Made by a program: the position numbers and the translations under genes. DNA of 64,000 nt from an uncultured Lichenihabitans sp. (GTDB taxonomy: Bacteria > Pseudomonadota > Alphaproteobacteria > Acetobacterales > Acetobacteraceae). The notes beneath the pieces are model-generated. The model saw only the letters and a program-made list of their open reading frames with translations. It was not told where the DNA came from and made no database searches. Below, one piece after another: positions 42,599-44,903 of this stretch. Where the stretch lies: positions 3,705 through 67,704 of the forward strand of contig CAZZZA010000001.1 of the NCBI GenBank assembly GCA_964658455.1, read 5' to 3'. Every line of letters starts with the position of its first letter. Within the stretch, counting starts at the first letter, position 1.

Positions 42599-43024
42599 TC
42601 ACAGCCCCTCTTTCCGGTAACGCAGCAGCCAGAGGATCGTAAACGGCTGGCACAGGATTGCCAGCACACAGAAGATGACCGGTATCGCGTCGTGTGAGAC
42701 CATAAGGACGTAGATCAGCCCGATAGCCGACGCGATGAAGTTGGCGACCAGGATCACGATCGTTGCTGCCCTGACGAACGTTCGCAATTTCGCGGGAGCG
42801 GGAGGCCAGAACAGCAAGCGGACCGCGTAGCTCATGACTCCTGCGACGAAGAACATCGCCAAACCAAAGGTGTCGAGGCCATGAGCCGACTCTCCGCCGG
42901 CCATCGCAATGAATTCGCCACCGAGACCGGTCGCCAGAAACGGCAGCCCTACGAGTGCGAGCGAGAGGCAGATGGTATAGGCAGGGCTGGCCCTGAGGCG
43001 CGGCAGTCTTTCAGCGTCGGTCAT
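42599..43024 (-). CDS. uncharacterised 4-TM small membrane protein B' (paralogue of 43421..43855)
   Basis: 141 aa with four hydrophobic segments. It shares VRL(L/I)FWP.(A/T)PAKLR(T/S)FVRAA and the C-terminal LRYRKEGL with B. Its ATG overlaps the stop of A' (ATGA). Confidence 0.7.
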   Translation of the reverse strand: MTDAERLPRLRASPAYTICLSLALVGLPFLATGLGGEFIAMAGGESAHGLDTFGLAMFFVAGVMSYAVRLLFWPPAPAKLRTFVRAATIVILVANFIASAIGLIYVLMVSHDAIPVIFCVLAILCQPFTILWLLRYRKEGL

Positions 43025-43335
43025 TGATGGATAGCCAGGCAGTGCACTTGCAGCCGATGCAGGATCTTATGATAGGTGGAATCTTCCGTGTTGATTTCCT
43101 CCCGAACCAGGAGGCCCACCGAGTCGGAACCGGTCAGCTTCGCAGTGCCGTCCAGCCCAAGCGCCGCAACAATCTTCTTGCTTCGATCCTGGGCGCGCCG
43201 GTTCGCCCGCGCCGCGATCTGCTGCAGGCGCTCAGCGCGGGTAGCGTTCCTGGTCCGTCCGGCAGGGCCGGTCGCCGCTGCTGCGGTCGTGCGGTCAAGG
43301 GTGCGGATATCCTCGATCTCGACCAGCTCTTTCAC
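43021..43335 (-). CDS. A': 5'-truncated, diverged copy of the C-terminal 105 residues of 43852..44796 (orphan module or pseudogene)
   Basis: 104 codons from a GTG with GGAG 8 nt upstream. By my manual count, 72 of 104 positions are identical to residues 210-313 of A. The similarity fades about 11 codons upstream of the GTG. Confidence 0.55.
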   Translation of the reverse strand: MKELVEIEDIRTLDRTTAAAATGPAGRTRNATRAERLQQIAARANRRAQDRSKKIVAALGLDGTAKLTGSDSVGLLVREEINTEDSTYHKILHRLQVHCLAIHQ

Positions 43336-43420
43336 GAGTTTAACTCCGCCGTTACTGATCCCCGCCAGTGCTAACGGAAAAGAAATGAATAGCTTTGGCT
43401 AGGAAGCATAGTCTCTCATT

Positions 43421-43855
43421 TTACAGGCCCTCCTTCCGATAACGGAACAACCACAAAAACGTCAGAGGTAGGCAAAGCAGTGAAAACACACTAAATGTTT
43501 TTGGTAGAGCCATACCGTGCACCGGCTCCGAGATTAGAAAGATCAGCACTAGGCTGATTGCCGAGACAATCACTGACGTCGCCAAGATGGCAGTCATTGC
43601 CGCGCGGACGAACGAGCGCAATTTTGCAGGGGTCCGGGGCCAGAATATCAGACGAACAGAGTAGCCAAGCACAACCAAAAAACCAAACATCACCTTTCCA
43701 TAAAAGTCGATCGCGTCAATCGAGTTTCCGCCCGAGATCGCAATCATATCGCCACCAAGGCTGACACCCGAAAAGAACAATCCGAGACATGCCGCCGAGA
43801 AGCTTATGGTGTAGCCAGGGCTACCCCAGTTTCCAGTCGCTTGATCCCATTTCAT
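43421..43855 (-). CDS. uncharacterised 4-TM small membrane protein B
   Basis: 144 aa with four hydrophobic segments. AT-richer than the genome. Its ATG overlaps the stop of A (ATGA). Confidence 0.7.
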   Translation of the reverse strand: MKWDQATGNWGSPGYTISFSAACLGLFFSGVSLGGDMIAISGGNSIDAIDFYGKVMFGFLVVLGYSVRLIFWPRTPAKLRSFVRAAMTAILATSVIVSAISLVLIFLISEPVHGMALPKTFSVFSLLCLPLTFLWLFRYRKEGL

Positions 43856-44796
43856 TTTCGATGAACTGCCAGGCAGTGTACTTGCAGGTGCCGCAGAAAT
43901 CGATGATAGCTTGAATCATCGATTGTGACCTCCTCACGTATCAAGAGGCCTACCGAGCCGGTGCCGGCCCCCTTCGCGGTGCCCTCCAGCCCAAGCGCCA
44001 CGGCAATCTTTTTGCTGCGATCTTGGGCGCGCCGGCTCGCCCGTGCCGCGATCCGTTGCAAGCGCTCGGCGCGGGTAGCATTTGTGGTCCGTTCGGCAAT
44101 GCCGGCCGCCGCTGCCGCCGTCGCGCGGTCCAGGGTGCGTAATTCCCTTATTTCAGCAACCTCTTTCAAGAGCTTGACGCTGCCATAGCCGATATCGGGC
44201 AAGGTTGCGATGGTGGCGAAAATCCGGAGACCCTCCGTCTTTTTTTTAAAGTCTTCTGCCCCTTCGTCGTCTCCGTTCAGTTCCATGCCATACGCGAAAC
44301 CGTCAGTCGCAAGGAGGAATCCACCGCCTATCAAGCCGAAGAAGGCGATTACGCTCAATCCAGTTGGTATCAACGCAATCGATAGTGCGACGCAGACGAC
44401 ATCCAACGCCACCCCCACCCCGTCGTCGCGGTGGGTGGTGAGCATGCGGTTGAGCGCCTGGTCCACTGCCCGGCCCATCGCCAGTTCGGCCTGACCCTCG
44501 GCGATCGCCCTGCGGCCCTCCGCTTCCATGACGCGGTCGATGAACGCGCGGACGCGTGGCCAGAAGCCGGAGGGCGGCCTGGGGATCGGCGGTGGCTGGT
44601 TCCAGTCGAAGATCGCGACGGTGCCGATGCCGTCGCCGTCGCGCTTCGGCGCGCGCAGCGGGTAGATGTTGCCGTTGGCGGTCCAGACGATGCCGGTTTC
44701 CGGATCGCAGGCGCGATCGACGAAGCGGGTGAGACAGAAGCGGGCATCGTTGAGGTCGGTGTAGGGACCCCATTCCGGGCTCAAGCTGAGAGGCAC
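43852..44796 (-). CDS. uncharacterised protein A: soluble N-terminal domain, central hydrophobic helical hairpin, Arg/Ala-rich C-terminal domain with a His/Cys tail
   Basis: 314 aa with no signal peptide. The hydrophobic hairpin is VGVALDVVCVALSIALIPTGLSVIAFFGLIGGGFLLATDGFAYG (residues about 127-170). The C-terminus is YHRFLRHLQVHCLAVHRK. I recognise no family. Confidence 0.7.
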   Translation of the reverse strand: MPLSLSPEWGPYTDLNDARFCLTRFVDRACDPETGIVWTANGNIYPLRAPKRDGDGIGTVAIFDWNQPPPIPRPPSGFWPRVRAFIDRVMEAEGRRAIAEGQAELAMGRAVDQALNRMLTTHRDDGVGVALDVVCVALSIALIPTGLSVIAFFGLIGGGFLLATDGFAYGMELNGDDEGAEDFKKKTEGLRIFATIATLPDIGYGSVKLLKEVAEIRELRTLDRATAAAAAGIAERTTNATRAERLQRIAARASRRAQDRSKKIAVALGLEGTAKGAGTGSVGLLIREEVTIDDSSYHRFLRHLQVHCLAVHRK

Positions 44797-44903
44797 GTGG
44801 CGCTGTCCCTATCCATCGCTGCGGCGTTCGTTATCACGCGGCAACGAGCGGCCCGTTGCATCACGAGCCCGTGAGCGGTGCCGGCCGGCCGTGTGCCCGC
44901 CGG

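Follow-up and report, generated by a model that had tools for sequence, protein, structure and literature searches.

The subject of this work is a cassette of four genes found in a stretch of 64,000 nucleotides (nt), hereafter the window, from an uncultured Lichenihabitans sp. of the Acetobacteraceae (assembly GCA_964658455.1, contig CAZZZA010000001.1, positions 3,705 to 67,704). The four open reading frames (ORFs), named here A, B, A' and B', are co-directional and lie on the minus strand (Table 1). A first-pass annotation, made from the letters of the DNA, had described them as a two-gene membrane cassette followed by a truncated and diverged copy of itself, and had likened the whole to a toxin/immunity pair with a displaced orphan module. 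The ORFs are present as it described them, and each A-type gene is indeed coupled to the B-type gene behind it, both junctions being 4-nt ATGA overlaps. The flanks have a G+C content of about 0.70, and the cassette one of 0.52-0.62.

Table 1. Features of the cassette in window coordinates (aa, amino acids; TM, transmembrane segments; GC3, G+C content at third codon positions; AF2, AlphaFold2).
Feature	Positions	Strand	Basis	Predicted or proposed role
A	43852-44796	minus	ORF, GTG start, 314 aa	candidate membrane-inserting toxin (effector)
A residues 1-125	44422-44796	minus	GC3, identity profile, no correlation with B divergence	'constant' part of A
A residues 124-168, hydrophobic helical hairpin	44293-44427	minus	Kyte-Doolittle windows, AF2 helices	proposed membrane-insertion and immunity-specificity region
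A residues 199-313	43858-44202	minus	tblastn and BLASTP	C-terminal region recurring as A'
B	43421-43855	minus	ORF, 144 aa, four TM	candidate cognate immunity protein
B-A' junction	43336-43420	minus	decayed A homology to ~43368	holds the GGAG of the A' GTG
A'	43021-43335	minus	ORF, GTG start, 104 aa	3' remnant of an earlier A allele (proposed)
B'	42599-43024	minus	ORF, 141 aa, four-TM paralogue of B	candidate orphan immunity gene
Inverted repeat GCAACG-N7-CGTTGC	44841-44859	none	present in the sequence	unsupported as a functional element

The C-terminal part of A recurs as A': BLASTP aligns A residues 210-313 with A' without gaps and with 72 of 104 positions identical (E = 2e-45), the very count made by hand in the first-pass annotation, and tblastn carries the homology back to A residue 199, upstream of the GTG of A'. 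This GTG has a GGAG 8 nt upstream, in agreement with the earlier remark that A' owns a start codon with a ribosome-binding motif at a suitable distance. B and B', previously judged roughly half identical, share 49% of their residues (E = 9e-43), along with the two motifs then pointed out: a VRL(I/L)FWPxxPAKLRxFVRAA block and the RYRKEGL end.

The AF2 model of A has a predicted local distance difference test score (pLDDT) of 70.5 overall. It starts with an alpha/beta domain (residues 1-65, pLDDT >85), called hereafter the N-domain, followed by a Pro-rich linker, a long helix (78-120) and the hydrophobic hairpin, for which AF2 places helices at 127-141 and 148-173. Then come two very long Arg/Ala-rich helices and a confidently predicted C-terminal strand (304-312). 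Both termini of A are predicted, from the model and from hydropathy, on one side of the membrane. B is modelled as a four-helix transmembrane bundle (pLDDT 82.7; predicted template-modelling score 0.74), and hydropathy finds four TM segments in B and in B'; thus the central hairpin of A and the four segments of B, both read from the sequence at first, are recovered. The positive charges of B are concentrated in loop 2 and at the C-terminus, which predicts that both termini of B, and likewise of B', are cytoplasmic. Besides, the B protein deposited at NCBI/ENA has 108 aa (P0049, 75% coverage), while Logan gene calls and all homologues back the 144-aa form that begins at the ATGA overlap: in the deposited record translation is probably made to begin at a codon too far downstream, so that the first TM helix is missing.

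None of the four proteins was recognised at first, and this remains so after wider searches. Pfam, NCBIfam, PADLOC and PHROGs give no match for A, B, A' or B' (0 PADLOC families; nothing below E = 0.02 in PHROGs). Foldseek gives no match at E <0.1 for the A and B models against the PDB nor for A against BFVD, the best PDB match for A having E = 0.69; hidden Markov model (HMM) searches of PDB sequences return noise and a designed coiled-coil only, and 50,697 phage records contain no homologue. The absence of a trafficking domain in A is also borne out: no signal peptide, PAAR, Rhs, LXG or haemagglutinin repeat is detected. We observe on the side that a few small uncharacterised phage proteins of BFVD superpose locally on the A model—a 96-aa protein of Mycobacterium phage PP and proteins of 83 and 77 aa from the Burkholderia phages BcepSauron and BcepSaruman—with target-normalised template-modelling scores of 0.73-0.80 and root-mean-square deviations of 0.8-2.2 Å, at E >0.1.

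Upstream of A, the inverted repeat and the ATCACG direct repeats flanking it, reported by the first-pass annotation, are there, but nothing supports their significance: the intergenic RNA folds no better than shuffled sequences (z = -1.16), its minimum free energy structure omits the hairpin, and a scan for sigma-70 promoters and terminators stays at background level, with no call at the repeat.

Relatives of the cassette and the joint inside A

The A family is rare and uniform. In an index of 5.8 billion proteins it makes up 48 clusters, nearly all of 310-316 aa and aligning end-to-end at 44-68% identity; its matches in genomes come only from Acetobacteraceae, Nitrospirillum, Caulobacteraceae and one metagenome-assembled genome (MAG) labelled Janthinobacterium. 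An exhaustive profile search of 1.84 billion representatives of 50%-identity clusters retrieved 120 of them. A distant branch, with proteins of 340-455 aa, keeps the whole architecture (hhalign of A1 against A5: probability 100%, residues 8-296), and the N-domain, which is the part of A predicted best, is conserved throughout the superfamily. The first-pass annotation had raised the question of whether this domain recurs with different C-termini: it does not, all 120 matches keeping one architecture. The N-domain as a portable delivery domain carried by other toxins was likewise considered and rejected, since even the matches limited to it keep the same architecture. This fixed architecture in the whole family argues against a polymorphic toxin with unrelated toxin domains. 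Most likely A-B is a previously undescribed protein family doing an already known kind of job.

We took a census of the relatives by tblastn and with an HMM of B on all the loci fetched, which yielded 18 non-redundant core-family loci. (A word-indexed search found B alone and a profile query six more; the B family was gathered from the loci by tblastn.) In all 18, A stands directly upstream of a B homologue and usually overlaps it by 4 nt. A was never seen without B: lone A homologues, conserved as housekeeping genes, had been named beforehand as what would speak against a toxin/immunity pair. One or two further diverged copies of B are found in seven of the 18 loci, two of these copies being frameshifted, and in four loci a 3' fragment of A directly abuts an extra B. 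These orphan fragments begin at different residues of A—199 in the window, 253 in L001, 227 in L016 and 235 in L022/L023—which indicates four independent events. The fragment of L022 is closer to the A of another strain (78%) than to its own A. Short metagenomic proteins (P0079, P0100, P0101 and P0115) have a comparable make-up, with unrelated leader residues and then homology to the A C-terminus from various points on. In the distant branch the A-like genes adjoin a small gene with three or four TM segments; its homology to B is undetected by hhalign (probability <1%).

Two further observations concern variation within genomes and samples. One Acetobacteraceae MAG (CALMVI01) holds two A-B loci on separate contigs (L006 and L015), one with a single B and the other with three, so that several diverged A-B alleles can coexist in one genome. 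L031 and L032, both from sample ERZ26165376, represent one locus with 97.6% nucleotide identity; in the 5x contig A is split by indels while B is identical. The split is either a strain-level pseudogenisation of the effector with immunity kept or an error of long-read assembly. The apparent variant of L032 with a 188-aa gene before B was set aside as uninformative: it is this locus again, with indels in a 5x assembly.

A composition and recombination joint lies inside A near residue 125, A being host-like before it and foreign after it. In the window GC3 is 0.88-0.90 over residues 1-125, as compared to 0.88-0.93 in the flanking host genes, and then 0.64 over residues 126-314, 0.59 in B, 0.73 in A' and 0.75 in B'; this trend along A, high on the N-terminal side and low on the C-terminal side, is found in most loci. 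Identity follows the same division: compared with Acetobacteraceae relatives the N-domain of the window A is 74-77% identical and the remainder 50-71%, and the A proteins of L002 and L021 are 97% identical over residues 1-65, 93% over residues 66-125 and 77-83% beyond, with B at 59%. The joint sits at a conserved HRDDGVGVALD motif. B is the faster-diverging of the two proteins over 14 loci (mean pairwise identity 0.32 vs 0.55 for A), and its divergence correlates with that of the A helix 81-125 (Spearman 0.70) and of the hairpin region 126-175 (0.60) vs 0.17 for the N-domain, the locus pairs being phylogenetically non-independent and no P-value being attached to these coefficients. Taken together, composition, identity and divergence suggest that the constant part of A extends over about residues 1-125, and that the exchangeable module is made of the hairpin, the C-terminal helices and B.

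Allele replacement, T6SS neighbourhoods and the origin of A'-B'

In four Nitrospirillum genomes A-B lies downstream of genes of a type VI secretion system (T6SS), in the order TssC, TagJ/ImpE, TssE, TssF, two small reverse-strand genes, ClpV, Hcp and one or two small variable genes. These genomes record a natural exchange. The order after hcp is x163 - A - B(type 1) in L007 and L009, x163 - A - B(type 1) - B(type 3) in L008, and x212 - x219 - A* - B(type 2) - B(type 1) in L010. The B(type 1) retained in L010 is 95% identical to the B of L007, while B(type 2) and B(type 1) are 50% identical; A* has 76% nucleotide identity with A vs 96% for the adjoining hcp. The residue differences between A and A* cluster at 125-200, where successive 25-residue windows have identities of 0.80, 0.60 and 0.72 vs at least 0.88 elsewhere. 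L010 is thus a case in which an effector/immunity allele was replaced and the old immunity gene kept. This allele swap, together with the linkage of A and B in every core locus, the extra copies of B and the four orphan fragments, upholds the initial proposal of a toxin/immunity-like pair with a displaced orphan module.

The interval between hcp and A in L010 (Nitrospirillum amazonense BR 11880; L010:8277-9953) has, immediately after hcp, a gene of 212 aa that weakly matches YkuD / L,D-transpeptidase (E = 0.0036); a gene of 219 aa follows, of which the other three strains have only a 163-aa homologue (64% identical). Pfam has no match for the Nitrospirillum gene that precedes A, and the other loci lack this gene. 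The 212-aa gene presumably resembles the Tlde1 family of L,D-transpeptidase effectors; a Tlde1-like gene beside hcp suggests a cargo region, and the 212/219-aa genes look like a second effector/immunity pair, whose orphan immunity gene would be found in the strains devoid of the effector. Downstream of A-B, L007:12183-20948, L008:12659-20948 and L010:12424-20948 contain an ORF of >2,800 codons, continuing past the end of the locus, with 57-nt and 441-nt tandem repeats and with Gly/Thr/Leu/Asn-rich units; it appears to be a giant repeat adhesin or an autotransporter-like protein.

A second T6SS neighbourhood is found in an unrelated metagenomic lineage (L003/L031): there A-B is divergent from tssA, at the end of a TssG-F-E-TagJ-TssC-TssC-TssB-TssA cluster, and is followed by a Ser/Thr kinase gene. 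Among the matches listed, a plasmid-borne tssC of Pseudoroseomonas cervicalis is 66% identical to the L003 copy, so that T6SS does occur in Acetobacteraceae. If a T6SS cluster takes up about 0.5-1% of a genome, at least two of about 13 independent contexts would abut one by chance with P <0.01, which is a rough estimate. In the loci unlinked to T6SS, A-B forms a minimal insertion, with housekeeping genes around it (uvrA, trpS/tyrS, GST, argG, ggt, pyk, aldehyde dehydrogenase). We note that in three Acetobacteraceae loci the same aldehyde dehydrogenase gene flanks different cargo.

How did A'-B' come to stand behind A-B in the window? A' has neither the hydrophobic hairpin nor any TM segment by hydropathy, and for want of the hairpin it is most likely a remnant devoid of toxicity; of the orphan module first proposed, B' stands as a candidate orphan immunity gene, and A' is probably no orphan toxin. 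Between A' and the C-terminus of A the nonsynonymous divergence (dN) is 0.185 and the synonymous divergence (dS) 0.563, that is a ratio (omega) of about 0.33, with no indel or stop over 104 codons. The B/B' pair is much older, its dS being 1.6. These values, 0.56 and 1.6, argue against a single duplication in situ; they favour a scenario in which a related allele came in and displaced the old one, perhaps with partial gene conversion afterwards. A simple recent tandem duplication was accordingly rejected as the origin of A'-B': the two values are threefold apart, and elsewhere the fragments match the alleles of other strains. The breakpoint of the displacement is probably just after the conserved TLPD motif, in the junction between B and A'.

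A reading as an effector/immunity pair, and its rivals

We hold with moderate confidence that A-B is an antibacterial effector/immunity pair of an undescribed alphaproteobacterial family, probably delivered as Hcp-linked T6SS cargo, and that A'-B' is the remainder of an older allele. The toxicity of A, its membrane target, its T6SS-dependent delivery, the immunity function of B and the site of their recognition are inferred. In such a scheme A would be delivered by the T6SS as an Hcp-associated cargo effector, and its central hairpin would insert into the inner membrane of the target cell and dissipate membrane integrity or potential. B would neutralise A inside the membrane, probably through the helix and hairpin region of A, and would so shield the producer and its kin. 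From time to time incoming DNA, carrying the variable part of another A from about residue 125 on and its cognate B, would recombine into the resident A through the conserved 5' part; the 3' end of the old A and the old immunity gene would be pushed downstream, where in the window they would be A'-B'. B' would then live on as an orphan immunity gene, directed against neighbours in which the ancestral A allele survives.

Several points weigh against this reading. As for delivery, no T6SS gene is present in the window, just as the first-pass annotation had found no secretion-system gene there; none lies within 10 kb of A-B in 13 of the 18 core loci (all but L003 and the four of Nitrospirillum), and none in the distant-branch loci with usable flanks (L028, L029 and L030). 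Where the linkage exists, A-B sits at the edge of the T6SS cluster in both lineages, that is in a generic variable region, which makes this adjacency supportive rather than decisive. A has none of the marker domains MIX, FIX, RIX, PAAR and DUF4150 in Pfam/NCBIfam, and no adaptor or chaperone gene (DUF4123, DUF1795, DUF2169) is conserved beside it. As for activity, the AF2 model is poor precisely over the hairpin (pLDDT 43-53), and PDB searches reveal no likeness of A, in sequence or in structure, to colicin-type or other known pore formers. Besides, four of the 18 loci, in unrelated genomes, adjoin type IIG/MmeI-like or ISP restriction enzymes or an 838-aa Schlafen/AlbA_2 ATPase (L002:3900-5822, L012:13314-16523, L015:12625-15612 and L022:7359-9875); such sites look like general hot spots of variation or defence, and a defence island would fit them also. 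Lastly, the constraint on A', whose omega is low and whose start codon, Shine-Dalgarno motif and coupling to B' are kept, exceeds that of a pure remnant: A' may have a function, or may have undergone recent gene conversion.

Unlikely in our judgement, and yet the alternative to take first, is that A and B form a toxin/immunity pair independent of the T6SS, released in a bacteriocin-like manner by lysis or vesicles or using another, possibly undescribed, delivery route, with the N-domain and the Pro-rich linker serving for uptake or trafficking. The evidence from arrays and orphans fits such a pair equally well, and the lack of a T6SS gene within 10 kb of most loci, the window and the three distant-branch ones included (among them a Sphingomonadales megaplasmid), would be expected of it. 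The superfamily-wide conservation of the N-domain and its well-predicted fold also speak for it, and the Pro-rich linker is reminiscent of the spacers of uptake proteins. On the other hand, T6SS core genes adjoin A-B in two lineages unrelated to each other, and in one of these A-B comes just after hcp; A lacks a signal peptide, and no lysis gene, type I secretion system, CdiB/TpsB or other export gene is linked to it in any locus. As to the unlinked loci, characterised T6SS cargo such as Ssp4 is mostly unlinked as well. A more specific form of this alternative, to which we give the same small credence, makes A a non-T6SS membrane toxin whose N-domain and Pro-rich linker, clamped by the C-terminal strand, would be a new trafficking or uptake module of an undescribed delivery route, A' being then a functional truncated product (decoy or assembly partner).

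It is more doubtful still that A-B acts inside its producer, as an abortive-infection or anti-phage module or as a toxin-antitoxin system in which one partner would permeabilise the membrane upon a trigger and the other restrain it. A compact, translationally coupled two-gene cassette of horizontally acquired composition would fit such a module; several loci do stand beside restriction enzymes or the Schlafen/AlbA_2 ATPase, and the predicted same-side termini of A are consistent with a resident membrane protein. But PADLOC and PHROGs have no match to it, none of the 50,697 phage records contains a homologue, and the link with hcp stays unexplained. Above all, extra B arrays, retained old B genes and 3' remnants of the effector are hallmarks of interbacterial immunity loci, and it is hard to see what purpose they would serve in defence or toxin-antitoxin systems; and, were B the toxin, an orphan B deprived of its cognate A would be harmful.

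An improbable alternative, and the least favoured of the functional ones, is that A and B are subunits of a membrane complex devoid of antagonistic function—structural, stress-related or for transport—and A'-B' an ordinary tandem duplication in decay. It would account for the co-occurrence of A and B across a deep superfamily, for the fixed architecture of A and for the many loci embedded among housekeeping genes. It does not agree with a family that is rare and patchy (about 120 cluster representatives in 1.8 billion), foreign in composition and inserted at a different chromosomal site in nearly every lineage, nor with allele swaps, the rapid divergence of B, four orphan fragments of independent origin and the threefold gap in dS between the two paralogue pairs. 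Finally, although repeats can mis-assemble in metagenomes, the chance that the tandem copy is an assembly artefact is next to nil, since the copies (77% nucleotide identity for the A C-terminus and A', 59% for B and B') are too diverged to be collapsed or duplicated by an assembler, the same 314-144-104-141 aa layout is found in two independently assembled runs (L018 and L019), and analogous layouts exist in other genomes, so that the mis-assembly which the first-pass annotation had wished to see excluded is unlikely.

If A-B is indeed an effector/immunity pair, the Alphaproteobacteria (Acetobacteraceae, Nitrospirillum and Caulobacteraceae) have a new family of antibacterial effectors that target membranes, with immunity proteins acting inside the membrane. 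To our knowledge, few T6SS effectors have been characterised from this class, and pore-forming T6SS effectors are rare generally. The evolutionary record would be unusually clear, with a joint inside the effector, natural allele swaps in which immunity genes are kept, and the hairpin as a candidate specificity region, and this would make A-B a tractable model for the recognition of a membrane-inserted toxin by a multi-pass immunity protein. As Nitrospirillum amazonense is a plant-growth-promoting bacterium, A-B may also matter for competitiveness in root colonisation. No new principle would be involved: effector/immunity pairs, orphan immunity arrays and the displacement of modules are already established.

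Comparison with known systems

The layout of A-B-A'-B' had at first been compared to polymorphic toxin loci: Rhs, contact-dependent inhibition (CDI) and MafB. The comparison is apt for the dynamics of orphan fragments and immunity genes: as in these loci, a constant 5' part precedes an exchangeable 3' part with its immunity gene, and orphan 3' fragments are each accompanied by an immunity gene. It fails for the trafficking region, for the demarcation motif and for the unrelated C-termini. A indeed has no Rhs/YD, haemagglutinin, PAAR, LXG or MafB_N region and is short, with 314 aa in all and an N-domain of about 65 aa; a direct reading of its translation reveals no VENN or PxxxxDPxGL motif; and its variable parts, instead of being unrelated toxin domains, all share one fold, of which they are alleles.

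Colicin immunity proteins, with three or four TM segments, are thought to recognise their toxin within the membrane. TpeX is described as a colicin-like T6SS effector whose integral-membrane immunity protein is also thought to recognise the toxin within the membrane. A-B resembles colicins, VasX and TpeX in two respects: amphipathic helices on both sides of a hydrophobic helical hairpin, and a partner comparable to their immunity proteins of three or four TM segments. It differs from them in that A has no Pfam colicin domain, no fold match in the PDB and no receptor-binding or translocation domain of the colicin type. Re78/Re79 of Rhizobium etli was also considered as a precedent and rejected, the immunity protein being there periplasmic, of about 32 kDa and endowed with a signal peptide.

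The T6SS loci of Vibrio cholerae offer a closer model of the gene arrangement. There an incoming effector/immunity module displaces the resident effector, whose old immunity gene, sometimes with the 3' end of the effector, stays downstream, and the arrays of orphan immunity genes grow at the 3' side of the cluster (PMC5361080). L007 and L010 of Nitrospirillum and the A-B-A'-B' order of the window fit this model. However, the A-B arrays are mostly short (one or two extra B) and usually away from T6SS clusters; the effector families differ; and the A alleles all belong to one homologous family, with the joint inside the effector near residue 125. Nevertheless, T6SS cargo effector/immunity loci with orphan immunity arrays would seem a closer precedent for A-B than Rhs, CDI or MafB.

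As to function, the closest precedent would be, by analogy, the pair Ssp4/Sip4 of Serratia marcescens. Ssp4 is a T6SS effector, mostly helical, with few predicted TM helices and one small beta-sheet, proven to be delivered by the T6SS and to form cation-selective pores; when it was found, it had neither a homologue of known function nor a convincing match in the PDB (PMC12669606). Sip4, encoded directly downstream, is a four-TM immunity protein of the inner membrane with both termini inside (PMC12669606). The genes are usually small insertions far from T6SS loci, sometimes beside hcp/vgrG or within T6SS clusters, and homologues of Ssp4 are reported only from Gammaproteobacteria, being very common in Serratia and Pseudomonas (PMC12669606). 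A-B shares with this pair a helical effector with a hairpin, a downstream four-TM partner whose termini are predicted inside, and loci that are mostly unlinked. By contrast, members of the A family, where identifiable, belong to the Alphaproteobacteria, and the domain order of A is not reported for Ssp4; the two are compared by description only, A being known here from its sequence and models. Any relationship between them would lie below detection by HMM, as only 120 representatives matched the A profile though homologues of Ssp4 are very common. Altogether, the protein families of A-B are undescribed, while the kind of system to which they compare is known.

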